Assembly: GCA_051294905.1 (NCBI GenBank)
Contig: CM119371.1
Span: 19,160,001-19,224,000 of the forward strand
Reading direction: 5' to 3'
Length of the DNA: 64,000 bases
DNA from: Botryllus schlosseri
Taxonomy: Eukaryota
The notes beneath the pieces are model-generated. The model saw only the letters and a program-made list of their open reading frames with translations. It was not told the origin of the DNA and did no database searches. Position 1 is the stretch's first letter; each line of letters begins with the position of its first letter. This document shows positions 10,955 to 60,273 of the stretch, in pieces. A program made the translations under genes and the position numbers.

Positions 10955-11335
10955 AAAAAACATCAAGTTTTCCAAGTAGTCAGCGATTAATGCAGCCAAC
11001 GCATATGAATTGACGAGCAACAAATTATATTAAACAATAGTTCGATATCTCAATTTCAATTTTGTCACATCATTAAGATGCCTATTCAATTTAGGTTTCC
11101 AATTAAATGCTTCCCCACAAACATTGCATTTATGGCTTTTGACACCAACATGCATAGTCATGTGTATTCTAAGGCAGTCCTCTGATGTGAATTCTTTCCC
11201 ACATACATCACATTTATGGATTGCGATACCAGGATGCGAACGAAGATGTCTATTTAAGTTATCTCTCAAAGTAAATCTTTTCCGACAAACATCGCGTTCA
11301 TGGTTTTCGACAGTAGCATGTACAGCCAGCTATTT
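10955..11335 (-). pseudogene. Degenerate tandem duplicate of the last ~3 zinc fingers plus 3' UTR of the ZF gene
   Basis: ORF 11030-11269 (NLNRHLRSH…CDVCGKEF…LRIHMTMH…KLNRHL) parallels the gene's terminal fingers. The downstream non-coding sequence also matches 11395-11490, and the last finger is broken. Confidence 0.8.
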
Positions 11336-11491
11336 GCATACTGCAGACAAACCGCAAATGTCATCGCATTGAGAAAAAGATTTAAACGCATCAGTAAAAA
11401 AACTTCAAGTTTTTCACATAGTGAGCAATTAATGTAGTCAACGTTCTTGAGAGCGACAAATTATATCCAAACATTGTTCGAAATCTCAATC

Positions 11492-36027: not shown

Positions 36028-37099
36028 GATGGCTGTATTATGGCTATGTAACTGAAATACTAATCTGAAACGAGCAAGAATTTCTCTTCAATACGTATAC
36101 AAACACCTTTGACAGCGAAAAGCACGTGAACACTGCATTCCGTAAGCTAAGCTGATAGCTGTGCAAAGCTGCGCTTTCGCTCGGCGCTAGGATCGTAGTA
36201 GGGAAATTCCCGTAATCATAGGTGAGACTATAGATAACTAAGGTAAACCGTAGATACGACACTCACGATCGTCACGCTCCAGTTATACTCTACGGTACTG
36301 TTGTTGTTTTGCCGGGAGCTTGTGTACGAAGAGCTGGATTACGGCATTTGGACAGGAATATCTATTCATGAGAATAGATGAGATAGGTTTAGCCAGGTTC
36401 TGCTCCCTTTGGTTATCAACCAAGGTTGTATGGTTGATAATTCACAATCTCTGCCCGGGAAACGTACAGGTAAATACAATTTTTAAGCCATAATAAATGA
36501 CTATACCACACAAGTAGAAATTCAGAGATTGGAAGTAATTACGGGTTGGATTAGAAAAAGCATTCTGGTTGCCCTGATCTAAATCCCTTCTAATATTGGA
36601 GATATCTTGATATGCATGAAGTTATGCTGCAGTGATAAGAATTATTGTTACTTGACAGGCAGTTAACTGTGTAATAAATTTAGAAACCAACAGCCGTGGC
36701 AATCTACAGCTTCATTTTGCTGTGAATTCAGTGGATAATGATTGAGTGTTTTACAAAGAATAACTATTTCATATAAGGCTCAAGGTTGTTACCAGGGTTT
36801 TGCCTATTGAGTTCGCTGATATGTGGTCAATATATAGCTGTTGAGGTTTGTGCAGAATACAATGCAGCGATGCCGAGTGTAGTCTCACAATCACTGACTA
36901 ATCGGTAAGATCTATGCAGAATCAAAGCAAGGGGCAGTAAACAATCCGTAAAATATTCAAGTCATTGTAAGAAATGTTTTATGGTATTTCACATGATATC
37001 GGACTTTCTGCGACATCACGTCCATTTGCGAAGTGGTAGCATGCAGTAAAATCATGGGTTTTCTAATCAATCCAGTCACTGTATGTAAACTATTTAACG

Positions 37100-40000
37100 A
37101 TGGCACCAACACACTGTGCAATGCCGGGCTGCAATTGGTCACGTTCCAGCAAGACAAAGCGTGCATTATTCATAATCCGCCAACCCCAATTTGCAAAGAC
37201 TGCTGAAGAGAGATCTCACCGGGAAAAGTTAACAAATTTCATCTTGTCTCTCAGAGACCACACTCGGGGAGATATTATAAAAGATATGTTACATAAAGAA
37301 ACGTAAGTCGATACTTCCGCAAGCGTTGCGTGTAAATGTGGCCTAATGTGCCATGGTTATTGGCTGATCTAGTCGACGATATTAGAATTATAGTATTTAA
37401 TGTTGCAGTGCTGCCATTTGCGACCATCACTTCGCTAAAGATGATGTAGTTTGGACTACTGGCGGTAAAAGACCCAAGCTCCGTCTTGGTGCTCTACCAA
37501 CAAAAAATATTTCAAAACAATCATCCTCTAGCTGCCAACCCCACAGGAAGTCTCCTACACCTAGGAAAGAACTTCCTCCAAAAAAGGTTTACGCCTGTCT
37601 GACAACCGTGAAAACGGCTGCTAAATGCTTGAAAGAAATTTACAAAGGTAAAAAGTTTTGTTGTGCTGCTGTACCTACCTTTCTTGTAATAACGCCTATG
37701 AATTGCTAGATTGCTGGCTCATAACTGAGGAGGATGATCATTTGGTCATACAGAAAAGAACCGGATTGTTTGAAAGCATAGTACCTGAATTGAGGTTTGT
37801 TGTAGTAGTAGGCTGCTTAGTCTAAGATGTGGGTGAAATTACGAGTTTTTATATTTTGAAAAAAAGAGTTGTAATAGACGAGACTGTCACGATACAGTCA
37901 ATCTCATGTTATGGCTGGCAAGTAGAACCAGAAAAAGTACAGCTCCCTCAGCTATCATTCTGCACTCTGACTTCATTTCTAGGTGAGTAGTAATGGTTCG
38001 AGTTCATCATGGTGATTGCAAAACTTGAAAGTTGTTTTGTTCAGATCAACTTAACAGGATTGCTTTATGCAAGGGGCTTGCAGACAGCATGACAGGCTGT
38101 GTGCATCACACAATAGTACGATGGAATGGGGACAGAGTAGTGGCCAAGGATGTATTTAGGTCATCTGGTTGTTATGTACTAGGCAAGTAGTATAATTTGG
38201 TTCAGATGATTTGTATGTATGTCGGCAGTAGGCCATCCATGAGGTAATTTCAATGCAAGAATAACTTTTCAGGGAACAGTTTTGACACAGATGGCATTTG
38301 CACCGCTTGTAGTAATTTTATGCAAAGGGGCAGTTTCAGTACTCATGAAGAACTTGAAATTGATGAGATTGAATGTGATCAGCAGGTGGTGTTATTGCTT
38401 CCAGATCAGCTTTGTTTGTAAATTATTAATTATTTCAGGAGTCAGTCAGTCGAAGCAAATGGCAGAACATTTTTGCTAATGCTCAGTCGAGCAACATGTC
38501 TTCGCACAGAAATGCTCGACGATACCCCACTGAAGTGATTCAATGGGCTGTTGAGCTGTTTTCCAGGTCCCCAGCTGCCTACAAATTTGTTCAAGAAAGT
38601 GGTTTCTTGGTATTGCCAACGTCAAGGACAATCCAACGTTTTCGGTAACACTTATTCATGCTACTTGATGATGTGTTCAAAAGTAGATTTATCCACAGGA
38701 ATAAGATCAAGCCTACTCCCGGAATTAATATGATTGCCATCAATGAAATTGAGGCGGTCATGGACGAGCATAAGTCTCTCCCGGCTTATATCACGCTTGA
38801 TGAAATGAAAAGTTGGCACCAATTTTTTTATGATGACATTAGGCACAGCAAGTAAAACTTCCTTTGTCTTTGACAGTTCGTGAAAATGTAGTTGTGAGAG
38901 ATGGCAGGCTGATTGGGTTTGTTGACTCGCCTTTCAATAATAAAGCTGAGATAGCAACACACATTTTGGGTAAAAAATGCATGTTCCATAGCCTACCGTT
39001 GCAGCTTGTCTTCATGATTTTTTTTTACAGTTTTCTATGTCCGTTCCATTCGAAAGGAAATTTCTCTACCATTGGCATGGTATCCAACTCGCTCGCTTCC
39101 ACCTGGTGACCTGGCAGTATACTTCTGGGAGCTGCTATATGAATGCGAAGTCAGAGGGTTAAATATCCATGCTGTTGTAGCTGACGGTCTGTCCATCAAT
39201 CGCAGCTTTTTCAAGCTGATCTCTGGGCAGAAAAAAATACCCCTTGATACAGCATTTACAGCACCAAATATGTATGCACCAGATAGGCTAATATACTTGT
39301 GCTCAGATCCTCCACATCTTCTCAAGGTAAGTATACTTTGAAGTTGCTGAGAAACTTACAAGTTATGCGGGACTGTTAATTGCAGACTGCTAGGAATTCT
39401 CTGCTTTCGTCCAGAAGTGCGGGGTCCAGGTATATGAATATTGATGGCAAGGGCAATGACATATTATGGAGTCATGTTCTGGAACTCTATAACACCGAGT
39501 CAACCAGCCTCGTCCTGTATCAATCTGGGCTAACAAGGGCACACGTGAAATTGAATCCTCGGTCAAAGGTATGTGACCACTCGGCATTTCGTTCATTTAT
39601 TTTCTGATTAATCTATGTGCGTAGATGAATGTGAGGCTGGCAATGGGTGTCCTGAGTGAGAGGGTAGCTATCTGTCTTAAGCAGATGGACCATCAAGGAA
39701 CTGCGGATTTCGTTTTGATGATGTACCGGTATGACCATTGTACGAATAAATGGCATTTTCTACCCAGTCAAATTAATCTTTTTTATGGCAGGTGGTTTCA
39801 CATTGTGACTTGCAAAGTGAACTGTCCATGCAATTTACAACATGGATGATAAAAGAATAAGTTTCCTTCGTGAGTTTGCAGACAAACTGGCAAATTGGAA
39901 AGTAACTAAATGGAATATACCTGCTATTCGTCATCCCAGTCCTATCTCTTCGTTCGATTACAGAAGGACTCCGAAGCTCGAAAAGAGCCCAAAAGGATGA

Positions 40001-40329
40001 TGACGCTGCCAACAATGGAAGGCCTCATCTTCACCTCACGAAGTTTGGTTGGCGTCTGCGAACAGTTATTGCGACAGATGCCTCGTGTGGCTCTTGGGAC
40101 ATTCACGCAAGATGTTTTGGAAGCGTTCTTCGGGAATTTGGTTGGTAGTAAACTATGCAATGCTGTGTTTACGAAATATATTTTTTTTTAGAGACAACGG
40201 GGCAGACGCTGCCAAAATCCCGATATCGGCCAGGCTGCTTATGGAATCAATCACCTCTCGCAAAGCAAGGTCATAAAACGATCTGCATGCTTTAGCCCAA
40301 AAGCCTTGAAGCGAGCTAAGAAAAATTGA
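37100..40329 (+). CDS. P-element/THAP9-like transposase, ~15 exons, lacking the C-terminal domain; one apparent frameshift near 39810-39830
   Basis: Manual splicing gives THAP C2CH (HCAMPGC…ICDHHF…LGALPT), SPAAY…LP, LDEMK, ADGLSINR, DPPHLLKTARN, KMNV and QDVLEAFFG-RQRG..NP. The frame ends …KRAKKN* at 40327-40329. Confidence 0.88.
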
Positions 40330-40389
40330 GTCAAATTTGGTGTACAGGGGTTTTCAAGCAACTTAACACTTCTATCTATTAGCCAATAT

Positions 40390-40712
40390 TTTTCCGATTC
40401 CTTACCGAGACGAGTCAATTTTACTTTTTTTAGTTTTGACTTGAGTCTGATCGATTCATTTTCGATTCCTTACCGAGACGAGTCAATTTTACATTCTTAA
40501 GTTTTGACTTGAGTCTGATCGAGACGAGTCCGAGTCAATTTTACCTTTTTAGTTTTGACTTGAGTCTGATCGAGCCATTTTCGATTCCTTACCAAGACGA
40601 GTCAATTTCGATTCTTTACCGAGACAAGTCCGAGTCAATTTTACTTTTTTTAGTTTTGACTTGAGTCTGATCGAGTCATTTTCGAATCCTTTTCCGGAAT
40701 AAGTCCAAGTCA
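40390..40712. repeat. Tandem array of ~55-70-bp units between the convergent genes of P1
   Basis: About 5 copies of CGATTCCTTACCGAGACGAGTCAATTTTAC(T)nAGTTTTGACTTGAGTCTGATCGA. Confidence 0.85.
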
Positions 40713-41660
40713 CAGTCTACACGCTTCAGTATCGGGTTCAACTTGCGTAGCTGTGAAACTCTTATGTATATCGAAGGCCTCACAGTTTCTAGGCCTAATA
40801 CCCAATTTTGGTCCTGGTATAAGAGACTTGATGCTAACATATAGTATGACGGATGACTAGGTCTGTAGCCGTGCGATTTTGGTCATTCTCACATCTGTTC
40901 ATTCCTCGTGTTGAAGAAAGCAATTATATTCGAATCAACTCTAATGTTTGTCTCTGTCTGATATGAGAAGCCTGAAGTGAATTTGAGCATTGAGACAAGA
41001 GTATTTATTTTTATGCAATCGAAACATTTGAATCACAGTGAACTCACAGCATCATCAGTGATACAGAAAAGAAATGCATATTTGACTCACTGAATTGACA
41101 GCATCATTGCCGATACAGGAGAGAAATGCATATGTGTATCAGTGGACCAACAGCATCTTCGAGGATACAGAAAATATGCAAAAAAGCATGCATAATATGT
41201 GGTAGTAGATAGCAATCACCGTTAACGATACAGATTTTGATTTCAACTAGAATGATCTTACATGCATCAAACAGCATACTTTCTCTACCTTAAAAAATCG
41301 AATAATAATAGCAAACCGCAAATTGGAAGCAATGTTAGGGCTAAATGGGGCAACAGTGATAGCATGACGACAAGAGGTAATCAAGTAAATGTCACACGGC
41401 AGTACACTATGAAGCAAAACCTAGAAATTTACAAAATTTTGTTTACAGCAGTAAGGAGACAGTCTGGCGCGTAGCGACGCAAATAACCTACTATGTTGCC
41501 TGTAGAAGCGAATTGTTTAAAAAAGATTGGGAGTCACAAACAGGGCAATAAACTAGACTGCATCAAATCATCCAGGTAAATGACGGTGAGGTGAAAAATC
41601 ATTCATTATGCTAACCACTTGGCATGCACAAATTGACTTGTTGAGAAAAATGAACACCCG

Positions 41661-42578
41661 CTATTTTGATAGCTGACTTCGGAGGGAAATTGCTCCACTA
41701 GTAACTCCACTGTGCAGGCGTTCAAAGAGTTTCTTTGCAAAGCTGTGCGAAAAAACACGTACCATCAACGACGTTACGTATGTCACAAGTTGTCGTATAT
41801 CTGACTCGGATGCATCCTCCATGCACATGTCATAAATCCTATGAATGAAAGACTCGTAGTGTTGCCCACTGAAAATTATGATTTTAGCATTTTCAAAATT
41901 GATCAACGACGGGTGTCGGTTAGCTTCTTTACAGAATGCTAGATACACGTGTTCCACAAAAAACATGTACTCCTCGGTAGGATACATCAACGATCCGGCC
42001 TTCCTTTCCATAAATAAAATGAATGAGCCACGTGGTTGGTCATTGCAAAGCAGCTTCACAATTTCCAAGCGGAAGCGTTCACGTCCAGGAGGCCCTCGTG
42101 CCTTGTTCAAAGTATATCCAGCAATATATTCAAGAGTTTCGCTTTCAAACTGCCGAATTTCACCCCCAATAGTTTTATCCTCTTTGACTGGACCCAACAT
42201 TATCATATGTTTCATTGTGTCAAGCAAGAACTTTGATGCCTCTATCGGAGATAGCTGCTCATTGAAATACTCTCGTGCATGAACTGCTTCAGTAGGGAAG
42301 TGGCGTATCACCGTTGCCGATTCCGGCTTTGACACAAACTCACTCCAAAATCCATCAAATTTCTGCCTGCCATAGCCAGACAACGTGATTTTATCACTGA
42401 TTTGTTGAATGAAGTCATGAGGTAAAATACTATTTATTATAATAGCCGCTTTAGCTGTAGGCTTCTCAACTTGACCAGATGCTTCTTTGTCGTTACTTTC
42501 TTCCATGTCGTTGTACAACAGGTCATGAATTACGTCGTCAGTCAACAGTGACTCCCAATCAAATACACCTCCCTCCAT
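41661..42578 (-). CDS. P1 second gene: stand-alone protein resembling the P-transposase C-terminal domain (305 aa, intact, intronless)
   Basis: Motifs ETLEYIAGYTLNK…GSLMYPTEE.MFFV..V..AF…MVRVFSH resemble the YIAGY…GGL..PS…R.H/Y CTD of P/THAP9 transposases. Acidic N-terminus. Lies inside the TIRs. Confidence 0.8.
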   Translation of the reverse strand: MEGGVFDWESLLTDDVIHDLLYNDMEESNDKEASGQVEKPTAKAAIIINSILPHDFIQQISDKITLSGYGRQKFDGFWSEFVSKPESATVIRHFPTEAVHAREYFNEQLSPIEASKFLLDTMKHMIMLGPVKEDKTIGGEIRQFESETLEYIAGYTLNKARGPPGRERFRLEIVKLLCNDQPRGSFILFMERKAGSLMYPTEEYMFFVEHVYLAFCKEANRHPSLINFENAKIIIFSGQHYESFIHRIYDMCMEDASESDIRQLVTYVTSLMVRVFSHSFAKKLFERLHSGVTSGAISLRSQLSK

Positions 42579-43248
42579 CCCTATCTCAAGTTATGTACGA
42601 TTCTAAATTTATTACACAGTTAATCGCCTGTCAAGTAACAATAATTCTTATCACTGCAGCATAACTTCATGCATATCAAGATATCTCCAATATTAGAAGG
42701 GATTTAGATCAGGGCAACCAAAATGCTTTTTCTAATCTAACCCGTAATGAGTAACTACTTCCAATCTCTGAATTTCTACTTGTGTGGTATAGCCATTTAT
42801 TATGGCTTTAAAATTGTATCTACTTGTACGTTTCGACTGAAATTCCGTTTCTTATTCTGATTGATATGATACCAACACATCATTAGTAGTATAATTACTT
42901 TCAATACGACACCTCGGAACTTCTATCGCGAGAAACAAGAAACCCGCTTCGGGCAGCCGTATTTAATGGCTTCGAAATGGTATTCGATTGGTCGTTTTCC
43001 TATCACAGATTGTTTAGCATGGATCCAACAACCTTAGTTAGTAACCATACGGAGCAGCTACTCGCTAAACATGCCCCATGGATAGATATTACCATCCTAA
43101 TGCTGAAATCTGCCTCCTGCTGCATAAGCGCCAAGCAAAACAACAACAGTGCCGTAAAGTATATTTAGAGCGTGAAGTCACGTGATGCTCGCTAGTGTCG
43201 CATCTACGGTTTACCTTAGTTATCTATAGTGAGACTATAGTGAGACTA

Positions 43249-43688
43249 TGGTTTTGCGTAAGCGACTGTAGGATTTCTGGCAATCCAAAAGCTATCTTCC
43301 CGAGCCCAGAAATTATTGAATCTGGTCTTGATCGAAAGCTACTGTTGCACCGATTCCGAAAATATAAATTTAAATAATGATCAGTCACTGATCCACCTAG
43401 AATCTGTCCTCCAAGTCTGAAATATCGGCATTGTTCAGAACAATCGGGTAACCGCAACACAATGACCGTAACAATGACCCGTTGCGACTCTCCGATTGTT
43501 CGAACAATGCCGATATTTCGACTTTGAGGACGGATTCTAGGTGGATCAGTGCCTGATCATTATTTTAATTTATATTTTCGGAATCGGTGCAACAGTGGCT
43601 TTCGATCAAGACTATATTTAATAATTTCTGTGCTCGGGAAGATAGCTTTTGGATTGCCAGAAATCCTACAGTCGCTTAGGCAAAACCA
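43249..43688. mobile_element. ~440-bp foldback MITE directly abutting the GTGAGAC site
   Basis: The arm TGGTTTTGC(G/C)TAAGCGACTGTAGGATTTCTGGCAATCC… is mirrored over ~200 bp around a short spacer at ~43450-43490. Confidence 0.85.
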
Positions 43689-45226
43689 CTCTCCACTCCA
43701 GCCTCGGCGGAGCGGAACGTAGCTGCAAAATCGGTCGTTGCCGTTCCATGTTTAATTTCTATAGTGAGACTATACTATAGGGGTCGGCAACCTTTTGCTA
43801 GTCGCGGGCCAAATTTCAGGTGCACAACATTTTGGCGGGCCGGACCGGAATTTTTCTTAATACTATAGTTAACAGTCACGTCGGTATATTACCCTACAAT
43901 GCTGCAATCTCAATCATACAAATCACAAAAGAGCAAAACACATGTATTTACACTTCAACAGCGCAGGATAAATGTGACACTTGGCGCAGCTTGCTTTGTG
44001 ATAGGATTTTCAACTTCTGGCAACAAGTCAGATGAAGCTAGAATCCGGCCATATTCAGAATGTGCGTTGAGATACGTGATCTTAGCTTGCTCTTCGTGAA
44101 TTTCATTGTTGAAAACTATTGTTCTCATGCGCACGTGCTACCAAAAGTCGATGCTATTTCTTTTGCATAATTGTTGGTCAAGCTGGGATGAAGACCCATT
44201 TCAAGAACGTACTCTTTGTCAAAGTCAATCAGCGATATGCTCTTTGTATGAAATTTGTCATTCAATTCAACTGCATGGCATTTCAAATGGGCCCATTTGA
44301 AATTTTCTGGCAATGGTATTGGCGCCCACATTAACCGGAGTACTGGGTAGTCAGAATTTATTTTGTACAGAACGAATGTCGGAAAAGCGGATGGAAATTC
44401 ATTAATTAAATTTGGTATATCAGAGTTACAAATGTATAGTGCTGGTACTAGCATAGCCTTTACAAACTAGCCTGGAAGCGGCAGACCGATTCAATGCTTT
44501 TGTTGTTCCGTGCAGCGACACCGCGTGTAAGACTGCGACTTTCAATTTCTGCAGCCATTTGATACTTGGAGATGTGTGTATTCTGCATATCTACCCGATC
44601 GATCTGACTGAGGAAGAACTCAAAGAAATGTTTAAAGACGTAAGTAATAGCTATAAAACATCAAGGACAAAAATAAACTACGTCCTTTCTTGTGGTAACT
44701 GATGATAGACAAATTATTTCAATAGAGCAGTGAAATCAAACGGAATCAGGGAGTAGGCCTACTCTCCCCGTTGCTGTTCTGTTGATCCAAGCTTGTTGAA
44801 AAGATGGATGACGTGTTGCTCATATTATGTTTCAGAATGAAGAGGACGTAGTTGTAACGTCAAATGAAGAGGGATGTTTTGAGATTCAAACTGGAGATAT
44901 TGATATCGGATGTTAACTGCCGTCACTTTCATCTTCACAACAAATATCTGTACAGTACTGCTGGTGGTATAGATCCTCTATACTGGGATCATAACTATTA
45001 TTGGTGTGACATTGGATATGACTCTGCAACTCAACGGAATACTCAACAATGTGAGTAATAATTATTTACCGCGTTTTTTTCGGACGATTTGTGCTTCTAA
45101 ACTTGTCCCTGGAAACATCAGAACGATACTATAAAATGACTGAAAAATTGCAAACTAACAGCATATCATTGCAAAGAACAGTATATTTAAAAAATATCGA
45201 TCATCCTGTAGCTATGTCCTACATAG

Positions 45227-48200
45227 TCATAACTTAACGTTGGAACTTGTTGGTGCTTCAATTGGTTGCTTCAACACAGCCAAGTTCAACATGTTGGTAG
45301 CAAACTGACATATTGTTGGATTATTTGTCCTTTCCCCACGTTCTCTTTGCATACCGAAGTATGCCTCCAAAGTGTCCTGATTTACTTTTCTTGTCATCAC
45401 AAAGTCTGCTCCACTGCCCAGGGTATTTTTCACAATTTCGACCATTGATTTGGTGGCAATGCGCAAACCATTTCTGGTTGCATCACTCAAAATCATTTTT
45501 GATCGGTCAACCTCTCCTACCAATCTCAAATTTTGGGCATTAGTTTCCCAGCTGTCTAAGTATCCCAAAAATTCCATCGACAGCCAGTTTAACCGTGGGT
45601 CGGTTACAGATTTGAATGGTTCTCTCGACTCCTTGAACTTTTTGCCTTGATAACCAGTATTCATATAATCAAACCATTTATCAATTGTCATCAAGAATTT
45701 TCCCAAAGCCTCATATCCTCTGCTTTGAACTACAGAGCCTATGAAAATGAGAAGATGCTGGTTAGCAAATATCTGATTCGAGGTGCAAGCTTCATTAATT
45801 ATAATGCTCACCCATAGTTGCAGACAGAGTTTGAGCGGCGATACGGACATTCATTTTTTGCCAGGCATTTGGTGATGCATGGGCCTCAGTCAGCTGGGGA
45901 TAGATGCGAAGATCGCCTCTCGATATGTCTTCCTATTTTTCAAATATGGATATTGGATATATATGAAGTGTCAATAATAAAAAATGGCTAGTCAATTATA
46001 CCCGTATAATCTCAGTGATTGGCTCTTTGTAAATAGGACCCATGTTCCACAGACTCTTTTTACCGTTAAAGAGATTATTTCTGCAGGTTTTCAACAGATG
46101 TGGTGGATCGGGTATAAAATATATGTACCTGTGTTAGAAATACGGTAAGATTAGTCAATAGAATGTTGCCTGAAGTAGAAGATCATGTGCCTTTTTGTGT
46201 CAATGGGGTTTTTCATGCGATATGGAACTTGATCATCATTATAATCTCCAAGCAAAGCCATCACAGTTCGGTTCGCTGAAAGTCCATCAACTAAACAAAA
46301 CTCACGTAGTCATCTTTATTAAAGAAGTGTACCATATTTCAAGAATTAACTATGATAATATACTTCTGATACCAAAGAGCAAATGAGGTAAGCCAATTAA
46401 GCATTGGCACATGATGTAATAGGACTTACAAACAATTCCTTCAATGATACAACTTGTCTGAAGTTGAACTTCGACCAGAAGATCCAGTAACAGAAAAAAG
46501 AGATCCGACGAATCTATCCCAGCTGTCGGGTAACATGCAATGACTCCATCTAGGTCTTTATTGGTTATTCCTGGATTTTAGTTCACGAGGCACCAGTTTT
46601 AAACTATGTCCTTTTATTTACAGAATTCACTGACCTCGCATGTATGCAGCAAGGATGTGAGTGGCCATTTTATCGGAAGATTTTGACAATCCTGTGTATA
46701 CTTCATTTTCGTAGTCAACCAGTCCAATGATAGCATTTGTTGAAGATTGATAAATAAGTTCCTCTGAAAGTTGACGGTAAGCAATGTGTAACAATGATGA
46801 CATACCGTACTGTCAATAAGCCAAACCTTTTATTGTCATCTCATCCAAAGCAAGAACAACATATCTGTCACATTCTTTTGAAGCTTTTGCAACAGCATCT
46901 CTTGTGATCTCTGCGGCCTTGGTTTGAAAGCCATACCCACATATTCCAAAGTCTTTGTTTCTGGTGGTATTTAATGTCCCGGGTGATGGCAAAATCAATA
47001 TTTTCCGAATTAACTTGTATGCTGCTGGTGATTTGGCGTACAACTTTAAGCAATACCTAGAATGAAGAATATTTATATCTTAGGTCCCAAACACAAAGAC
47101 TGTTTTCAATTTACCTTACTACCGATGGCGGAAATCTTCTTTGAAATTTGGACTTTTCAGCCTGCAAAGCTAACTGCGTCTCCCACCATTCCTTCAGGAA
47201 ATTGTCAGTGCTAGCAATTTCCTCCACAAAATTAGCCATTCCTTCACCTAATGTTACACCCTTAGCTTCCAGCAGTGACTCAAGATCAGAAATTCTGGAT
47301 AAAATTTATAGGTGAATTCTCGATTTAGTTCAAGCCAATCTGTTACCACTTACCAATATATTATCCTATATTGTTTATATCGCCCCATAACTAACTCTCT
47401 TACAATATGTAAAACGCATTCAATGTTTCAACTGACCGTGTCTGACACAAAGACCATGATTGTTCTAGTCTTTCTCGACTGGCCCTTTCTGCTTGCTTTA
47501 TAGGTACCTCCTGCAATTTGGACAGCCTGCGATATTTACTCCTTTGCTTTTCATCAAATTTAACATGTGACTTCATGCATTCTGCACATACAGATCCATC
47601 TTTGGAGATGACAACCTCGCATGTTTTGGTATAATGTCTGCAAAAGTAACATCCTCGAAATTGTTGGTATAATTGCGTCACAGTTTTAAAATAAGGACAA
47701 TAATATTTATAATATAAGAATATATGATTAAGTATCTGCTTTGCTTGGAAACTTGCAAACTACCTCATTGCAATGTACTTGGTCGTATTTCTGAAGTTTT
47801 TTTTATATTCTTTGCCAACTTTTGTAAGTCTATTCAACTTTGTAATTTTAATTTTCTCAGATCCAATACACGAAAAACTTAACTGACCTCGATTTTTCGA
47901 CCAACTTTCCTCCCTCTTTTGTTGCAGTGCAACGTACTCTCCAGAGGTTATCCTCCACGCTAAAATCTGCATACCCGTCACAGACATCCAACTTTTTCAA
48001 ATCCCGAAGCAGCTTTTGAAGCGAAAATTCCAAAGTAAGAGTATGTGAGTATGCTGATGCATACACTCCTTGAATGGCTAAAGACAGTTCAAAGGAAGAA
48101 GATTGATGCCGAATCAAGAGACTCATGTATGGACACGCGTGAATGTCGGGGTCTTTGTAATATGTCAAGTGCAGCCTGTTTTCATCGATTTTGTGGGCTC

Positions 48201-49082
48201 TCCAGTTTACAATAGGATGCAAAACAAAGTCAGTGTAAACATCATCAATAGAACCATAATCTTTCTTATTCGGGTAAGAAATTGGAAGTGAATATTTGAC
48301 AATTGTTCTTCTAGCAGAATTTGGAGTGCACTCGTGTGATTTTTTTGGGAGATTTTCCGTAGGCAGAGCTCCCCATTTGATCCGGGATCGTTTGCTGTTG
48401 GCCACTATGTCTCCTGAAGCAAAATGCTTCTCGCAAATGTACACTTCCTTCGTCTTCAGACGATTACGAAATTGAGAATCATCCCTGTATTTCAATAAAC
48501 GCTGAAATGAAAGGATACTTGATGTTCATGGATTGCATTGTGGTTTTTGGGGTCAATGAATAGATGGATTGGTAACAACAGTAGGTACCGGACGAGCAGG
48601 TATTCACTAGAGGTGGCAATAGAGTAGGGTTACCATACGTAGGATTTGTCCTCCTTTTTCAGGTTTTTGAAAATGTCCTCTGAGGACGCCTAAATGTCCT
48701 CCTTTATGGTGATTCGTCCTTTACAGCTAAGATAATGAAAATTCGTGGTTCGATCAAAAGCGACGACCTTTTTTTGTCAACCCTTCAGCAAAAATAGCGA
48801 AATCGGCTGATTTCAGTTTTGACCAACTAACTTATCTGAATTGGTAAAAGTGTCCTCCTTTCCCCCTTCCAAAATATGGCAACCCTACAATAAAGTGATC
48901 AGAGTTTAGAACGAGTTGTTAACCTGATGAAAATTGGATGCCCATTCTTGATCTGCAGAATGGGAGCTACCATCTTTCTCATTTGGAACTTTATACAGGC
49001 GAATCCCACTTCTCTGAGAACTTGTACACCCCGGCAAACAGCAGTATTTACCGGATCCCTTTCCACATCAGGCCTTTTTCAT
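45227..49082 (-). pseudogene. P-element/THAP9-like transposase of P2, multi-exon, lacking the CTD, disrupted
   Basis: Motifs: THAP (YCCLPGC…W…ICEKHF…GALPTENLP), SPAAY…LPS, LDEMTIK, DGLSANR, DPPHLLKTCRN, KMNV and QDTLEAYFGMQR..G..NNP. The frame ends …SSNVKL*. Lesions include an in-frame TGA at codon 5 (49068-49070) and a frameshift near 46483. Confidence 0.88.
48625..48887. mobile_element. hAT-type MITE in the first intron of the P2 transposase
   Basis: TIR TAGGGTT(A/G)CCATA. TSD CAATAGAG/CAATAAAG. Confidence 0.85.
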
Positions 49083-49589
49083 GCCTCTCTGTAGGCAAAA
49101 CTATCTAATTCTTTCTCAATTAAAGGATGAACTCGGTCATTACTTCACAATTCCAGCAACTTGACAGCAAATTTTGTCATTGTAATGCAAAAGTAACAAA
49201 GTTTAACACTCAATCATTGGGCTATTCATGCATACCAAAACTTTGCATTTTTTTTCTCGTTCCAATGTAGTAATTGACAAATAATTGCAAAGAATGAACG
49301 AAGTGACGAGCAGCCAGTAATCTATTGATATTTTTTTCCAATAAAAAACTCTAAAAACACCACAAGATTGTCATAATGAAAAGTTACGAGGGAGACTTGG
49401 AGTAATTGTTTTTTAATTTTCTAATATGACACCCAACTTGGCCTCAGAGAACATTTAAATGCATGCAAAGTGTACACTGAAAGAAAATAATAGAAAGCAA
49501 TATAAAATGGAAACGGAAATATGCAAAGGAAATGAAGTAGCATGTGTCGGAAATATGAAGAACCAGTTTCGATAATGTTGAGACCATAT

Positions 49590-50595
49590 TCAACTTCGGA
49601 TACGATCTCGCAGTGCTTTGGAACCTCTAGATTTATATTTCTTTTGTTCATGATAATTTCTCGTCGCAGCCAGGCAGTATGTATGAGTTCTTGTTCTCAC
49701 ATATTTAGAAATGAGGAGTTTCACAAGGATCTGGTCACAATGTGGATAATGTAATGGAATATTGACATTCTCGAGAATGCTTTTCATGTCAATAAACCGT
49801 GAGTTTTTTTGCTTTTGAAAATAAATTTCGACTTCTTTCATTAGGTAAAAAAATCTTTCATTTGGGCATATCATTCCTCTGTTTTTAGGTTCGAATTCCA
49901 TTGGTAGAGGGTTCTTAGACACTTGGTTTTTACACCAATCTCTCCATTCACCAGGAAACTTTTTGACAGCCCACTTCAATATAGCACCACATATATATTT
50001 AATTACTTTCAGGTCATCATCAGTTATCAATACACTCTTATACTTTGAAACTCCCCAGTCCGTAGCTTTTTTAATTGCTCCAGGAATAATCGTCTTCAGC
50101 AATTGCTTGACACGACTTTCAGGTATATCTAAGCAGCAAATGTAGGTCTTTTGCATGAGGGCAGAGTATGATAGCATCATTTCCTTTTTACTTTCGAATG
50201 ATACAGTTTTCTTTATATCTTGCAATAGTTCTTTGTATAGGTCTGTTTCCTTTCTTATCGTTATTTCCAATCCTAAAGTACATATCCCGGTGTCCAATAG
50301 TTCCTCACAGTTAACATCCGATATCAATATCTCCACAGTTTGACTCTCCGAACATCCCTCCCTATCTGACGTTCCAACTATGTCCTCTTCATTCTGAAAC
50401 ATATGAGCAAAACGTCATTTAACTTCAAGAGGCCCTTTTCAACACAACAGCAAGGGCCAAGGGGGGGTACTCCCTGGTTCCGTTTGACTTTCACTCCTTT
50501 ATTAAGAACATCAAATAATTAGTATATCATCAGTTACTATAGCTATTACTTACGTCATTAAATATTTCTTCGAGTTCTTCCTCAGTAAGATCCAT
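49590..50595 (-). CDS. P2 second gene: stand-alone P-transposase CTD-like protein (probable exons 50554-50595 and 49590-50393)
   Basis: Motifs KVIKYICGAILK…NRGMICPNERFFYLMKEVE.YF…KYVRTRTH. The probable exon 1 (MDLTEEELEEIFND, GTAAGT donor) joins in phase 0 to TTTCAG|NEEDIV. The reading frame is intact. Confidence 0.8.
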
Positions 50596-51997
50596 CGGCT
50601 AAATATATATAGAAAATACGCACAGGTCTAAGTAGCAAATGGCCGCAGAAAATGAAAGTCGCAGTCTTACACGCGGTGTCGCTGCACGGAACAACAAAAG
50701 CACTGAATCGGTCTGCCGCTTCCAGGCTAGTTTGTAAATGCTATGGTACTAGGTTTACTCTCCTCCAGTATAGGAAAGTGAGCTTATTTAGTTGTTTCCC
50801 CCTGAAGTTGCAAATTCAATTTGTTTAGATGTGACGTTAAATGTTCTACGAAAGCAAGATTAGATACCCATTTTCGGCGATGTTTGTATTTTCAAGGAAA
50901 GTTGCTATTTCATTTCTCAGTTCATACACTCTTGCAAGCATCTCGACGTAACAAAGCATGTACCCGTTTTGCCTGCCAGTGACACTTGCAACCGACGGGT
51001 TTGCCCAAGACACAGAAAACTTCTGAAGAACGCATATTGCTTGGAATGCCGAACAGCTTCTTGTAGTTTAAGTGCTATATGTTTCGTTGTTCTTGTGTTT
51101 GAAATATACGTGACAAAGCAATGCTTATTGGGGTAGGCCTATCTTTACTATTGCTTTTGGGTCTGCATTCATTACAGTGGAACATATTGACTCAAAGGCT
51201 TTTCGCGTGCGCCTTGTCAGGAGTTAGCGACACAAGAAGAGCTTACTGAAATATAGACATACGAAAACCAAATTGGCAAAATATGACGTAACAATGCAAT
51301 AACAAAAAGGATCGCTAACAGCTGTATCGGTACTCCGGTAGTCATAACAAAGTGACAAGAGAAAATCAAATCATACAAAACACAGACAATTAGCGGTATT
51401 TTATTTAATATTTTAGGATTGCATAGATAGGCCTACTCTTTGTGCTTGTTATTGTGCCGTTAACTCTTTGATGGGGGCACACGGGGGATCTTTGAGGTGA
51501 TGGATTCTGCTGTGGTGAATGTGGTTCTGAGAGCAATATTCAAGTTCAGTACCGCCGGTAACATTTGAGGTATCTCTGCGTTTCTCTGAGAGCTATTAAG
51601 GTGATTAACATTTAAAAAGTGGTATTCTGCGACTCACGCAGCAGCCTGATTCTAAAATCGGAATATGACGAACCCGGACCAGCTCGGGGCTCGTTCACTT
51701 TCGGACCAAAAACCCTTTTTCTCCGTAACGCTGTACTAAGTTTGGTCCGAAAGTGAACGAGCCCCGTAGGTGCGTGAATTACATGTTCCGGAATCATCAT
51801 CCGTAAGTGGAAGAAAACATTATAAATTTTGACATTTTTCGAAGCAGTGCTGCACTGCAGATTGGAACTCATTACGAAACGGCGGGCCGTATTCTTGTGG
51901 TAACTAATCATTTCGTCGCGGGCCGGACGATTTCGCTTGGCGGGCCGGATCCGGCCCGCGGGCCGTAGGTTGCCGACCCTTGATGTAAACAGTCAAC

Positions 51998-52453: not shown

Positions 52454-54366
52454 CAGTGGCGGCTCGTCCTATAGGGCAACTGGGGCATTGCCCCACCTTA
52501 AATTCTGTTCAATAACAATTCTTTACCATTTATAGACGCACACAAATCTATATATACCGAAATCACAGCGAAAATCGTATTCTTCTTGTCCTTTCGCTTG
52601 TAAATGCCCATATATAGCGAAGTCTCTGCGAAAATCGAATTCTCTTCTGTGTTTTCGCTTTGCGAATGCCTATAGCCGGGGCATGCCCCGGTAGCGCTCA
52701 TAACAAGCTTTCACTGTCTATTCTCTCAAAGCCGCGCACAATAAAGAAACGGTGATTTACTCTCGCCTATTCATAAAATTACCGAGCAACCGGGGCACAA
52801 TAGCTCTGTGCCCCTAAGGTGTGATGTAACAATCGTATCTAAAGCTGAACTCGGTTACCGTCATATGCGTTTAGTCGACCTTTGCTGGTATAGGTCGATT
52901 TTGATGGTGTTTCACCCCATGAAAACTCTTGAAACTTGGTATGTCATGTCGTGATGGTGGTATTTAACACTGCCCCAAGTTTCAGGGTTTCTACTTAAAG
53001 TTTAGGGTAGTAATTCCGCTTCCGAAGTTGAGTGTGTGCTGATCCGTCATGCATCGCAAACAGATTTTACTCAAAAGCCGGTATTGGTATCCATTGATTT
53101 TGACGATGTTCAATACTGAGATCGGTTATGACATTTGGCACGGTAAGTCTTAATGTTAGTATAGAACGCTGTACCAAGTTTTAAGTTTGTCACTGAACTA
53201 TGTTAGTGGTAATTTCGTTTCCTAAGTCGAGTGAGAGCTGACTCGTCATTTATCGCTAACAGATTATACGCAAAGCCAGTATTGGTCTCTATTGATTTTA
53301 ACGATGCTCCTTACCTAGATCCGTCAAGCTTTTGCACGGTATGTCTTGATTTTAGTATCGAACGCTGTGCCAAGTCACATGGTTGACACTCAATGATTAG
53401 GGCAGTAATTTCGTTATCAAGGTCGAGTATGGTAGAGATGTGCTCCGATCTGGCACTTTAGCCTACAACGCATTGCGGATTTCACGCAAAAGCCGGTGCA
53501 TCTGCGGTAACGTTAACTGAGATGATAATATCATTCTCAGTTTGCATTCAAATATTTACTTTGATATTATAATCTCCAATGTCAATTTCACCGTGAAATT
53601 GTGGCGTTCAAGCCATTTGCTTACAACCCCCTGTCAAGCGCGATAGCTATTTCGTTTTCGATGGCGGCTTACAGCTGATCACTTGATCAGCCTATTCCTC
53701 AGTAAATTTTACGCAAAATTCGGTGATGGTCTGTTCGCATTAATTTTGACAGTGTACCATACCGAAAAGGGCCATGAGGCCACTTCTCGATGATGTCACG
53801 TAACAGTGTATTATAAGTTTAAGGCTTTCATTCACGTACTTATTCGATAATCTATTTTCCAAAGACGATTTTGCAGCAGACCTTAGAGTGTAATAAAGCC
53901 GTATATGTCGTGTTACAGTCTCCAGTTTCAAGGCCAAAATCTCCCATGCTGTACCGAGACCGAATTTCCGAGGCTGCTATTCTTAGTTCTTCAGAATGAT
54001 GTTTTGGATTCAATATGACAGGCCCAATCTATGATATAACAATTGCGTATCTGTCCGAACTCGCTGACCTTTCCAACTAGGCTTACGCTATCTCTCGAGT
54101 AGTCATCTCCAGGTCTAGTGCGAACATGAACCGTGTTGAATCTTAGTTCCGTACGCCGTTTACGTAGTTACGACACTTCAAGTCACAGCCCACCGGCGGA
54201 CCTCTCGTGGCACATACGTTAAAATCACTGTTGCCGGCAAATTCATGTTAACGTACCATCATTAAGTTACTTGTTTACGTTGGAAAACGCCATTGTGACG
54301 TCATCTTAATAAAAAGTCGCTTGCAGCCCTTGCCCCACCACCCGATATTGTCACGAGCCGCCACTG
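52454..54366. mobile_element. hAT-type non-autonomous element, copy 1 (1.9 kb, internal tandem units)
   Basis: TIR CAGTGGCGGCTCGT. Perfect TSD TTGGATAT. Inverted homologue at 57906-60273. Confidence 0.92.
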
Positions 54367-54779
54367 TTGGATATGTCAGATTATTATGATATCGATTGCC
54401 TTAGCCCGCTTGTTGCGTAGGGCTCCAGAGACACGTCGCGCTGTTCATGGCGGGTGTCGATACTTTCTATAGTCGCTTTTATGGTTAAGTGTGAGCAAGG
54501 AGCATTGAGCATGAGCATACATTACAAGCTTTTATTTGATCCGTATGGGTAGGACTTGGTCCGCGAATGCAGCAGGTAAAATGTTGATTGTTGAATAAAG
54601 TTTTACAGCAGGACTGTCGAATTAAACTGGTATCGCTGTCCGGATTCAATCCGTTACTAGAAAGCTTGCGGGCCATACCTGCCAAATGATTCCAAAATTT
54701 TACCACCAAATTCATGCCTTTGTTTTTCACTGGAATATATCTGATATCACTGTAAACGTTGACGTTGGAATTTGGTTTA

Positions 54780-56077
54780 CCGTAAACCGGGGTAACTTTG
54801 GACAATTTTCAACAATTCCGCTTTGTATCTTGGAAATTCTAGGGTGTAGGGGAGGCAAGTTTTGTGTTTTTCATGGGTCATGGAGCAAAGATTAGAATTA
54901 CCTAATCCAAAATCTTCATGGTCATAAATAAGTACCTTATTTTCGTAAATTATCCGTGTCCAAAGTTACCCCTGCATGTGGGGTAACTTTGGACAATGTA
55001 GTATTTTGTATGCCTTTACACTCCATTATTTATGAAACCTCGTAAATGAGGTTTATTTGGTAAAAGTTGATGAGAGCAGTGGCTAAAACTGAAACAAAAT
55101 AGTTTACGTCTGCCCTATTGCATGATTTTTACCTAATCCCCCACCCCCCAAAAAAATAAAAAATTAGGTAGTTTATGAAGGGTAATGCCCCCTTATTCAT
55201 CCCTTATCTCAATCTTACCTCATGCCTTCACCAATTGGGACTTATAAATAACATATGGTGATGAGGGGTATCCCACTGGCAGTGTCAGCAATCGACAGCA
55301 AACATTAAGCATGTTACCGTGATTTATTGCTGATTTCAATTATGTTACTGTTCTTCAAAAGATACACTTTCCCTTTCTTATGTCCTCTGATGGATATATT
55401 TGTCATAATTTACGATATCCCATATTCAGCAGGCACATCTTTAGGAATATGTGATAAGTTTTTGAAGTAGCTTACACCCGATTACTATCTCTCAGCTCAT
55501 TGCCTACCCATTTTTCATATTTTGGCAAACTCTTAATTTGTTAACCTTCTCATTCCATTTTAAAAAGCCATCAGGCCGGTTATAAGGAATATAGTTGAAG
55601 ATACACTTTGACACAGATGAAGTAGCCACTTTCCAGAGCTCTAAATATCACATTTTCCACTGTCCAAAGTTACCCCGTTCTGATAAAATTTGACGGGGCA
55701 ACTTTGGACATTAAATTTTCTTGTATTGATCTAAGGGTGAGCCCATTGAGATTTTTGCCATGGATTAAGACTACTCAGTGGTATCTGCTGCCAAGTTTTG
55801 AATCTATGAATCACATGCTATCTATGTTTGGTTATAAGAAGTTTAATGGCCATCAATTTTAATGAAATTGACCCCCGCCATTAATTTATCAATGTCGGGT
55901 CAAGTTTAACTGGTAGTGAAATGAATCCATCTTTTATTGAGACTACTTGTGGTACGCTTGCCTCATGAAAAAGAATTGGACATCCAGCTGCAACCCTTTT
56001 CCATCAATAACCATTTGAATCTTTTACTGCTTAGTGTCCAAAGTTACCCTTAAGTCCAAAGTTACCCCGGTTTACCG
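54780..56077. mobile_element. pogo/Tc1-mariner-like MITE
   Basis: TIR C(C/G)GTAAACCGGGGTAACTTTGGAC flanked by TA on both sides. Internal GTCCAAAGTTACCCC repeats. Confidence 0.88.
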
Positions 56078-57905
56078 TAGCATTTTTCAATCACCAAATA
56101 GTTTTTTTGAATGCCGGGGACCTTTTGCGTCAAAAGTAATACAGTGGTATCACAGATATTTGAATTATATTCATTCTGTAGCCTGTATATATATTCCTAA
56201 TGTAACTTACGTAAAACGGATTTGCAGTATTTTTTTCGCATCTGTGAATAACTGAATGTCCATTGTCCATTCGGCCCAACAGAGTTTGCACTTTTTCGCC
56301 TTCTCGGAATTTGGCAAGGTCGCCGACGTGGTGCTTATGGGGACTAGAGTGAAAACTCAACACTGTAGTTGTATTACTACAATATGATATATTTACATTA
56401 TCTAAATTTGCTGTCTTGAGTTAATCTTATTACTTGAAAGTATATTTTTCTTACTAGAAATATCTCTAACAGCTGAAGGATTGCGCGAAAATTGGTAGGG
56501 ACCAAATACATTCTGTGGACCCACTTCTACCATTACAAGTCAAGGAAAGGCTGGTGTGTGCTCGCTTGTACCGAAACGCATAGAAAAAGTATCAACAGCG
56601 CAGCGTTTCTCTGTGGCGCGGTTGCACATTGCTATTGCCGCGACGTCAGCTGATCTCACTTTTCGCCGCTCGGCCGCATCCTTGCTCTTGAGCTGGTCTC
56701 TCGTTTCGCCAGACATCGTTGTCACACTGCCAATCTACTCGACAATGAATAATTTGGGGCAGATTGTGGGGGTTCCAGGGCCATGAGTGGAATAAATTTT
56801 ATATTTTCGCAAGCAGTACAGCGTCAGCTTTCGATTGATACCCGATTCATCAAATTTAATGCTCGGGAAGTCGGTCAAAAATCACCGTCAAATTGCCTGT
56901 AGCCAAATGGAAACTGTGACGTGATATAATTTCATTGAACCGTGCGAATTGCTTGCGTCGACACCATATAGGACACTACGGTGAGACATTTGCGTCGAAC
57001 GGCAAATGAAAATGCACAAATTCTGCTGGAATTGTTCTATTAATGTTATCAGATGACGAATCAGTACCGTCCTGTTTATACCTTATAATCCTTATCCATA
57101 TTTCATATTATTATAGGGTTACCATACGCCCTGTTTCACTAGGATTTGCCTCTTAAAGTGGCCTCGGTGGACGAAATGTCCTCTTTTTGACAAATTGACT
57201 TCATTTTTGAAAATTTTGGTTCAATGTACGTGATTGTTTTTGTGCCGAACATAAGTTGGTAAAATAATGAGCTATACGCAGAGGTCTCAAACACGCGGCC
57301 CGCGGGCCGCATGCCGCAATTATTACTGACACGATATTGTTACATATTAATTTAGCTGCTTAGCTATATCTTATCGCACCGTCTCTGTTTCGTTCAATGA
57401 TATATATACAATTATTGTAAACTGCCACGGCGTGCCACGCCCCTGAACGCTATAAGGCCCTTTTCATACCGGATTTATGAAACTCTTTCGGGAACAAGTT
57501 CCGAAACAGGCGATGTTCACATAGAGAAAAAATTACCGAAACAGTTCCGGGAAAAGAGCGCGTTCATACCTATTTAGAGTTACCGCGAACTTATGTTCAA
57601 TCTGTATCAGTATAGAGCCCGAGCATGTTCCTATGGCTTGTATATTATCAACTGAAGCTGAGAGCAGGAACTGAAAGCCAGCAAAGAGGATAGAGTCCTG
57701 GAATGAAAAGAACCACCGATCACATCTGCGTACGACAAAGTCAGTTTATCTCCGTGAGAGAAACATTTGTTATACTCTGCGAAGAGCTTCGAGACCATAA
57801 CGAAAAGCAGCCAGCAAATTATTCGAACTCAATTTCTCTTGCTTGCTGAGTAGCTGTCGCTCTTTGGAGGCTAGCCAATGAAGCCAATCGTTTTATAGAT
57901 CCAGG

Positions 57906-60273
57906 CAGTGGCGGCTCGTGACAATATCGGGTGGTGGGGCAAGGGCTGCGAGCGACTTTTATCAACATGACGTCACAATGGCGTTTTCCAACGTAAAAAA
58001 GTAACTTTATGATGGTCACATGAATTTCCCGACAACAGTGATTTTAACGTAGGTACCGCGAGAGGTTTGCCGGTGAGCCGTGACTTGAAGTGTGGTAACA
58101 AATGTTTTATTCATTTATTTTTAATCAAAGGATTATTTTACAAAATGTACGTGAACTAAGAATCGTCCCTATGCCACGAATCAAGTATCAGGTCATCCTT
58201 AGTAGCATGCGTTTTGATTTCATGGTAGAGTTATAGATTACGCAAATCGATAGACCCTAAAATCCGACCGTCACCCCAAATTCGAAATCCGGATCCAGTC
58301 CGGCCAGGTAAAAAACATTGAAATCCTGCTCCGGCTCCTGAACCGGACTGTGGCCATCTCTGGTTACGACCAGGTGATAATAGGCAACCAAAGCGGAAGC
58401 ACCCGGCGTACGATTGGATCAATAGACTGGACAACTTCTAGACCTCTCATTTTCGCTCTAAAGGCAACTGCGTAAACTACGTACGGAATAAAGATTCAAT
58501 ACGATTCATGTTCGCACTTGACTTGACCTGACTAATTCCAATGACTAGAACTCGAGAGATTGCGTAAGCCTAACTGGAAAGGTCAACGAGTTCGGACACA
58601 TACGCAATTGCTATCTCATAGATTGGGCCTGTCATATTGAATCCAGAACATCAATTTGAATGGTCTTTGAAGAACTAAGGACAGCAGCCTCGGAACTTCG
58701 GTCTCGGAACAACGTAGGACATTTTGGCCTTGAAACTGGAGACTGTGACACAACACATACGGCTTACTATCTATAAGTCTGCTGCGAAATCGCCGTTGGA
58801 AAATATATTAATATATAAATACATGAATAAAAGCCGTAACTTAGTATACTGTTACAAGAAATCATCGAGAAGTAGCATACGCAATCTCATAACCCATTCC
58901 GGTATGGTACACTGTCAAAATCAATGCAAACAGACGAACACCGAACTTTGAGTAAAATAGATCGAGGAATAGGCTGATCGAATGATCAGCTGTTAGCCGA
59001 CATCGAAAATGAAATAGCTATCGCTATTGACAGGGGATTGTAAGCAAATGGTTTGAAGGCCACAATTTCACACTGAAATGGACATTGGCGAACATGAAAT
59101 TATATGAATATTTGAATGCAAACCGAGAATCTTGGTTAGCTGTTTCATGCGATCATCGAGATATACCATTGGAAATATCATCACCGATCTCGTTATGGAA
59201 CGCAGACTATAGATTAGCACAGACCGACACCGGCTTTTGCGTGAGATCCGCAATGACGTAGGTAGGCTAAGTATCAGATCAGCGCGCATCTCTACCATAC
59301 TCGACCTCGAAAACGAAATAACTGCCTCAATCATTGAGTGTCAACTTTAAGACTTGGCACCGCGTTCGATACTAAAATCAAGACATACCGTGTGAAAGCT
59401 CATGACAGATCTAGGTATGGAACATCGTTAAAGTCAATAGAGACCAATAACGGCTTTTGCGTAAATTTGTTGGCGATAAATGAAGAGTCAGCTCTTACTC
59501 GACTTTGGAAACGAAATTACCACCCACATAGTTCAGTGACAAACTTAAAACTTGTTACAGCGGTCGATAATAACACTTACCGTGCCAAATGTCATGACCG
59601 ATCTCGGTATAGAACATCGTCAAAATCAATGGAGACCAATACCGGCTTTTGAGTAAAATCTGTTTGCTGTACTATGTACATGATAGATCAGCACACACTG
59701 AACTTCCGAAACGGAATTACTACGATTATCTTTAAGTAGTAAGCCTGAAACTTGGAGCAGTGTTAAATACTACCTTCACGACATATCATACCAAGTTTCA
59801 AGAATTATCATGGTGCGAAACACCGTCAAAATCGACCTATACCAGCAAAGGTCGACTCAACGCATATTACGGTAACCGAGTTCAGATATAGATACGATTG
59901 TTACATCACACCTTAAGCTCGAGTAGGCATATTTGCCCCGGTTGCTCGGCCATTTTACGAATAGGAGAGAGTAAATCACCGTTTCTTTATTGTGCGCGGC
60001 TTTGAGAGAATAGATAGTGAAAGCTTGTTATGAGCGCTACCGGGGCAAGCCCCGGCTAGGCATTCACAAAGCGAAAACACAGAAGAGAATTCGATTTTCG
60101 CAGAGACTTCGCTATGTATGGGCGTTTGCAAGCGAAAGCACATGAAGAACGCGGGTTTCGCTGTGATCTCGGTATATATTGATTGCTGTGCGTCTATAAA
60201 TGGTTGAATTGTTATTGAACAGAATTTTAGGTGGGGCAATGCCCCAGTTGCCCTATAGGACGAGCCGCCACTG
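57906..60273. mobile_element. hAT-type non-autonomous element, copy 2 (inverted relative to 52454-54366, with extra insertion around 58225-58440)
   Basis: TIR CAGTGGCGGCTCGT. Perfect TSD GATCCAGG. Confidence 0.92.

Follow-up and report, generated by a model that had tools for sequence, protein, structure and literature searches.

Two-gene P-superfamily elements in Botryllus schlosseri encode a homologue of the transposase carboxy-terminal domain separately from the transposase

Two complete elements with different gene orders

We analysed a 64,000-nucleotide stretch of the Botryllus schlosseri genome (contig CM119371.1 of assembly GCA_051294905.1, positions 19,160,001 to 19,224,000 of the forward strand; hereafter the window, numbered from its first letter), which holds two neighbouring DNA transposons of the P superfamily, P1 and P2, each with a transposase gene and a second gene, open reading frame 2 (ORF2), related to the carboxy-terminal domain (CTD) of P transposases. 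P1 (36229–43228, + strand) is a complete element with convergent genes, TATAG as its terminal letters, long terminal inverted repeats (TIRs; 36229–36692 at the 5′ end, pairing with 42594–43228 at the 3′ end) and a perfect 7-bp target-site duplication (TSD), GTGAGAC (36222–36228 and 43229–43235). Its transposase gene (37100–40329, + strand, with about 14 short introns inferred from frames) encodes a THAP domain, a helix–turn–helix (HTH) and an RNase H domain with an insertion, and ends about 55 amino acids past the third acidic residue without a CTD; the window copy is broken by a frameshift (four extra bases at about 39827–39830, relative to two relatives). The P1 ORF2 (42578–41661, − strand) is a single exon of 305 codons for an acidic amino-terminal helix, a helical domain and the CTD homologue, and adjoins the 3′ TIR, with its ATG 16 bp inward of the repeat's inner edge and 650 bp from the terminus. 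Between the convergent genes lies a short repeat array (40391–40709; units of 50–70 bp), with similar copies at 18981 and 21565, and a separate inverted-repeat element (43249–43688) directly follows P1.

P2 (44452–50745, − strand; terminal letters CATAG) is likewise complete, with TIRs and a perfect 7-bp TSD, GTACTAG (44445–44451 and 50746–50752), and its genes are in tandem. The 5′ TIR (50308–50745) contains the start of ORF2, whose first exon (50595–50554, − strand; 14 codons, MDLTEEELEEIFND) is spliced in frame to a second exon of 267 codons (50393–49590, − strand) ending in TGA at 49590–49592; the ATG lies 151 bp from the terminus. Downstream on the same strand, after a gap of 508 bp, comes the transposase gene (49082–45227, − strand; 11 exons, inferred), which ends 50 amino acids past the QD of a QDxLE motif, at about residue 576 of the fly enzyme. 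The window copy of this gene is broken by a stop at codon 5 (49068–49070), where three aligned family copies have TGG and an expressed contig also lacks the stop. Its intron 1 holds a high-copy small inverted-repeat insertion (48627–48890), common to the aligned P2 copies and absent from the sister family L046. The 3′ TIR (44452–44920) carries, on the + strand, a dead copy of ORF2 exon 1 (44598–44639), its intron and about 85 nucleotides of exon 2 with a 2-bp gap. A third, + strand gene at this end was considered and rejected: the ATG of the dead exon is ATC in all six P2 copies aligned, and its counterpart in L046 and L115 has a 1-bp gap. P2 itself sits in a high-copy repeat (flanks 43249–44451 and 50746 onward), the empty site of which (joint 44442–50744) was found in contigs and reads.

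These coordinates bear out the original prediction, made from the window's letters, that the layouts differ (transposase + and ORF2 − in P1; ORF2 upstream on the same strand in P2), that the P2 ORF2 has its own stop and that each ORF2 starts near one terminus and reads inward. The spliced first exon of the P2 ORF2, the dead copy of its start and the lesions in both transposases are additional to that account.

The transposases end before the CTD

Both elements have P-superfamily features. The THAP motifs C..C and CxxH are present at the amino terminus of both transposases; PF05485 scored E = 0.001 on the P2 exon, under the curated cut-off, because an intron splits the domain. Two Pfam families exceeded their cut-offs, PF21787 with 27 bits in an exon of P1 and PF21789 with 29.9 bits in one of P2; a match to PF12017 in the transposase exons fell below its own. 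Both proteins have DPPH at the DxxH motif of the split RNase H domain, with 6p5a_A as the best match in the PDB. The GTP-binding insertion was recognized (PF21788, 52 bits) in a split relative, L101, the window's short exons having been only partly scanned.

The CTD, by contrast with fused P transposases, is not on the same polypeptide as the catalytic core in P1 or P2, where the transposase has its own stop and ORF2 is separate. The last P2 transposase exon aligned to fly residues 516–556 and ended about 20 amino acids further on, near 569/570, where the first chain of the 6P5A entry stops. All 16 transposases checked had their own stop soon after the catalytic glutamate (28–64 amino acids from the QD in the 10 measured). 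Because one-gene P elements with a fused CTD (frames of 792–813 amino acids) share the genome, truncation is a property of the split lineage.

Two further families were noted in passing. One (L121–L123) is a one-gene, THAP9-like P family, with 14 of 34 PF21789 matches in open frames longer than 700 amino acids; its CTD carries a CxxC...H...C pattern that ORF2 lacks. The other (L101–L106 and L127) is a split family poor in introns, whose termini read CAATG and whose TSDs are of both 7 and 8 bp.

ORF2 is a homologue of the P-transposase CTD

The P1 and P2 ORF2 proteins could not be aligned pairwise (BLASTP E = 0.09), and are linked as homologues because profiles built from their genomic relatives connect them: the P2-group profile matched P1-group members down to 8 × 10−11, the P1-group profile matched the P2 ORF2 at 5 × 10−6, and both searches converged on the same 65 frames. 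For the identity of this family, methods that are weak singly were concordant on one target. A 43-row ORF2 profile had 6p5a_B as its sole PDB match (E = 0.21), with YIAG and GxLxxPS aligned, and Tnp_P_element_C was the commonest and top Pfam family for ORF2 members (19 of 43; best E = 0.0015). AlphaFold models of the two ORF2s (predicted local distance difference test scores of 77 and 72) both ranked 6p5a_B first in Foldseek (probabilities of 0.97 and 0.85), and residues 121–250 of P2 exon 2 superposed on fly CTD residues 617–734 (VIA Z 9.7; root-mean-square deviation 3.1 over 110 residues). Comparison of ORF2 with the fused CTDs of the same genome using hhalign gave E = 6 × 10−6, and, of 56 metagenome loci, 7 had fused transposases whose carboxy-terminal parts were matched by a 31-row ORF2 profile (best 9 × 10−9). 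Besides the YIAG and GxLxxP motifs and the basic carboxy-terminal helix, which it retains, ORF2 has about 110 additional amino-terminal residues, consisting of an acidic helix (in both groups) and a helical domain. Together, these results identify ORF2 as a P-transposase CTD homologue.

Other searches returned little. Pfam searches with each ORF2 alone gave nothing useful, and a fold search with ORF2 residues 23–116 gave no clear match (best Z 7.2). In a word-indexed protein search, neither the P2 ORF2 nor the last transposase exon had a match and the ORF2 profile found two unnamed proteins, outcomes that are uninformative on novelty. The ESM Atlas yielded only unrelated bacterial clusters of low recognition value for the P1 ORF2 and no usable match for the P2 ORF2; a genome search with PF12596 gave no matches anywhere, its controls likewise giving none.

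The tandem order is derived and ORF2 is under purifying selection

To place the two layouts, we scored 100 genomic stretches chosen through ORF2 and transposase searches, plus P1 and P2 (102 in all; a biased and redundant sample). The first scoring gave 52 convergent, 7 tandem, 3 with ORF2 downstream on the same strand, 15 with ORF2 only, 14 with transposase only and 11 with neither. The three same-strand-downstream cases were rejected: in L041 and L120 the ORF2 match lay outside the element's TIRs, and in L116 the tail of a transposase from another element came after it, on the opposite strand. The final count was 52 convergent and 8 tandem (L041, itself tandem, added), with no ORF2 assigned in L116 and L120 and no stretch in which the CTD could be cis-spliced onto the transposase. 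In both window layouts such splicing is impossible, as the original prediction held. In L120 (2039–6689), short inverted repeats flank a P1-type transposase but enclose no ORF2 match, ORF2 there being either deleted or too divergent.

In a 22-row transposase tree (root on the one-gene side; gappy or nested rows, among them L077 and L108, omitted), the four tandem rows formed one clade (100/100) inside an 11-row set with seven convergent rows, other trees being similar; the remaining nine split rows were all convergent. Because the tandem clade nests among convergent families, P2 owes its layout to a change from the convergent order. All split rows fell on one side of the one-gene branch, which fits a single origin of the split, judged against two outgroup families only. 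The ORF2 and transposase trees were broadly congruent (r = 0.92 over 27 rows, which are not independent). In addition, 1 of the 56 metagenome loci (L142, 2375–2986) had the convergent split layout, with 39% identity to the P2 transposase; the split design therefore occurs outside this genome.

The ends of P2 suggest how the order changed. Its convergent relatives have TIRs of only about 30–90 bp, with ORF2 exon 1 mostly 155–166 nucleotides from the 3′ terminus, long TIRs being lineage-specific. Both P2 ends resemble the ORF2 end of these relatives, the 5′ TIR with the live exon 1 and the 3′ TIR with the dead copy. The simplest, and likely, route is that the ORF2 arm was copied in inverted orientation to the opposite end and the old copy then decayed; alternatively, the transposase gene may have been inverted within the element, with the TIRs extended afterwards.

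Among 28 ORF2 comparisons of non-synonymous to synonymous substitution (dN/dS, by Nei–Gojobori; 11 between subfamilies and unsaturated, 4 saturated, 13 within young families), dN/dS was 0.12–0.33, with upper bounds of at most 0.47, in all 11 unsaturated between-subfamily comparisons. Between P2 and L046, both tandem, ORF2 gave 0.158 (0.10–0.23) at a dS of 0.86 and the transposase 0.146; between P1 and L063, the values were 0.120 and 0.071, respectively. ORF2 thus remained under purifying selection after the switch of layout. The notion that ORF2 is a decaying passenger, for which one could cite intervals including 1 in 11 of the 13 within-young-family comparisons, has next to no probability: those comparisons are mostly uninformative, since near-identical copies carry few changes and drift after insertion is expected, and neutral decay between families, which the original prediction had named as evidence that would tell against it, is refuted by the between-subfamily values. 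The argument of the original prediction from retention despite rearrangement stands as regards selection; P1 and P2 are too distant to show a rearrangement by themselves, and it is because the closer relatives of P2 are convergent that one is shown. The tandem form was mobile recently, because six tandem P2 copies from separate loci, 98.5–99.2% identical to the window copy, all differ in their TSDs.

RNA from P2 and the question of fused or shared transcripts

RNA evidence came from five public runs (three of raw reads and two contig sets whose RNA status is a guess; X21 contributed only 5 reads), with reads deriving from several element copies. The P2 ORF2 intron was spliced in two X24 reads and in X1 and X3 contigs. 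For the transposase, a single sense joint was seen (GC..AG, 46128|46191, in an X1 contig of depth 3.9). Spliced antisense RNA covered the transposase gene (44598–47928, + strand, limits that are not mapped ends), with GT..AG joints at 44639|44836, 45050|46624, 45050|47504, 46776|47504, 46776|47928 and 47628|47928 (one of these read from a loose end), and its splicing began at the dead ORF2 exon 1 copy in the 3′ TIR. Two further candidate joints, 47642|47873 and 45374|47475, were rejected as splices, equal DNA deletions being present in copies L042 and L045. Within the intron copy of the same TIR, a 35-bp piece (44655–44689) matches an abundant RNA end followed by polyA, with about 1,200 loose-ended X24 reads, and is probably a 3′ scrap of a retroelement.

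Could the two halves be reunited in RNA? Trans-splicing, for which Drosophila mod(mdg4) offers a precedent, or splicing from circles or dimers, would join transposase RNA to ORF2 exon 2 and yield one fused protein. Exon 2 of P2-type ORF2s does open with a phase-0 acceptor, and RNA depth is too low to exclude rare joints; no transposase–ORF2 joint was found in the five runs, an absence that is weak because of that low depth, and the chimeric messages foreseen as a counter-argument to separate products were thus looked for without being seen. Against fusion, no splice donor common to the 16 transposase 3′ ends was found and every one of these has its own stop. The first exon would be lost in such a joint, yet its protein sequence is conserved: 14 codons with a donor were present in 8 of the 10 elements scanned, and all five nucleotide changes between P2 and L046 are silent (no amino-acid change). 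The P1-type ORF2s examined, moreover, start with a similar acidic helix within a single exon. We consider a fused product very unlikely.

A second possibility concerns expression only and is compatible with ORF2 acting either as a subunit or as a regulator: the tandem order of P2 might itself be functional, with one transcript from the TIR promoter carrying both genes in an operon-like manner. An X1 contig (48793–50393) links ORF2 to transposase exon 1 across the gap. This gap, which has a single polyA-like hexamer (49417), has diverged between P2 and L046 apart from a short conserved block just before the transposase ATG, the last letters of which are CAG. A contig, however, does not prove a single transcript, and exon 1 spliced to the CAG would be in frame in P2 but not in L046. 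There is also a candidate 5′ end of the transposase messenger RNA at 49223 (− strand), inside the gap and 141 nucleotides before the ATG, defined by six X24 reads in which an adapter, which we take to be the template-switch adapter, runs straight into genomic sequence with no leader. This end is a weak sign that the transposase starts within the gap, and we rate read-through as rather improbable.

A proposed two-subunit transposase

We propose that the ORF2 protein joins the catalytic core as a second subunit required for transposition, a reading to which we give a probability of roughly 0.7 from sequence-based evidence. In the fly complex (PMC7776569), the CTD hangs on a flexible, disordered linker, lies between RNase H and the GTP-binding domain of the other subunit, and contacts transposon and target DNA. 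A split at that linker is structurally plausible. The transposase would stop before the CTD and the separate ORF2 protein would supply it, docking at the fly CTD site between RNase H and the partner's GTP-binding domain and touching both DNAs, with the added acidic helix and helical domain perhaps replacing the lost covalent linker. In P2, the ORF2-bearing end would have been copied onto the other end and the old copy would have decayed, its promoter copy now possibly firing the antisense RNA and the transposase using a start in the 508-bp gap. Direct support comes from the truncation, the CTD homology, the own start and spliced exon 1 of ORF2, the purifying selection on it, the broadly matching trees and the repeated insertion of both layouts. 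A more far-reaching version would combine an obligate two-subunit enzyme, in which a free, target-capturing CTD has acquired a new docking module, with a gene that changes ends by TIR copying, an abandoned promoter in P2 that acts as an antisense self-silencing switch, and separately controllable cutting and integration; this is tentative, and as a whole we would sooner expect it to fail in some part than to hold.

Several observations weigh against the proposal. Each homology score is weak alone: no PDB or Pfam E-value for ORF2 reaches the usual cut-off, chance similarity between helical bundles can give a Z as high as 9.7, and the fused CTDs of the same genome escaped the 43-row profile at E ≤ 0.001. 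Raw reads cover the P2 ORF2 only about 1–3×, with P1 almost uncovered; the 49223 end comes from just two read start places, and the unbroken X1 contig allows read-through. With respect to the switch, the dead ORF2 piece shares P2-specific bases with the live ORF2, so the remnant dates from after the divergence of P2 and L046, or has been refreshed since, and does not simply preserve the old position; the gap upstream of the transposase ATG matches none of the 5′ ends of relatives with convergent genes. Finally, the conservation of ORF2 fits a regulator as well as a subunit.

This last point marks the most serious competitor, in which the truncated transposase needs no partner for its activity and ORF2, derived from the CTD, serves as a repressor or as a cofactor for targeting or timing. 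Selection and co-divergence would fit any cognate partner, truncated repressors are made by fly P elements (PMC7776569), and RNA coverage is higher for ORF2 than for the spliced transposase. Yet the fly CTD is described there as a structural part in contact with transposon and target DNA, ORF2 retains the motifs and basic helix of that domain, and it has been kept by all sampled split families across a deep tree. We therefore regard a purely regulatory role as unlikely and prefer the second-subunit reading.

Relation to known elements

P1 and P2 resemble the Drosophila P transposase (6P5A/6PE2), vertebrate THAP9 and zebrafish Pdre (PMC7776569, PMC10983969) in having THAP, HTH and a split RNase H with insertion, the DxxH motif, three acidic residues, a helical CTD homologue, TIRs and TSDs of 7–8 bp. 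They differ in that a distinct gene, starting independently, encodes the CTD together with about 110 extra amino-terminal residues, the transposase ends at the linker, and the genes are convergent or tandem. Galileo (PMC4168063) is similar by features only, with long TIRs (about 440–630 bp in P1 and P2) and 7-bp TSDs; its TIRs lengthen when coding sequence of one end is taken up into both, as is proposed for P2. It differs in its single ORF of about 900 amino acids, P1 and P2 having two genes and many introns, and its GTANTAC target consensus is only loosely matched by the TSDs of the families here. A second gene inside the TIRs is also found in Kolobok Kol0 and KolobokP (PMC9587614), lying downstream on the opposite strand in KolobokP; those second proteins are unrelated accessory ones (KolX, a His-Me nuclease), whereas here it is a detached domain of a transposase of the element's own superfamily.

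A full-text literature search found no description of a split P transposase, with Repbase reports and subscription papers, which may list two-ORF P families, outside its reach. Two-gene eukaryotic DNA transposons are also known from PIF/Harbinger. The tandem lineage is the new part here. Each P transposase described in the cited papers consists of one polypeptide, and most of what is known about the function of the CTD comes from one structure. Here the enzyme is naturally divided at the disordered linker, a division kept over a deep clade and through a change of order, which makes that function directly testable by omitting or swapping one gene, and the design could yield a two-component, separately controllable transposase. 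The tandem lineage serves as a natural control that removes odd splicing as an escape, and shows long TIRs moving promoters and making antisense transcripts. Annotators would misread split transposases as truncated and ORF2 as an orphan gene.

Other features of the window

Elsewhere in the window, 16 repeats with 84-nucleotide spacing (11075–12919, − strand) are likely to be a C2H2 zinc-finger array, judging from the period. A large foldback-like structure (52454–60273) has nested inverted arms spanning about 8 kb.

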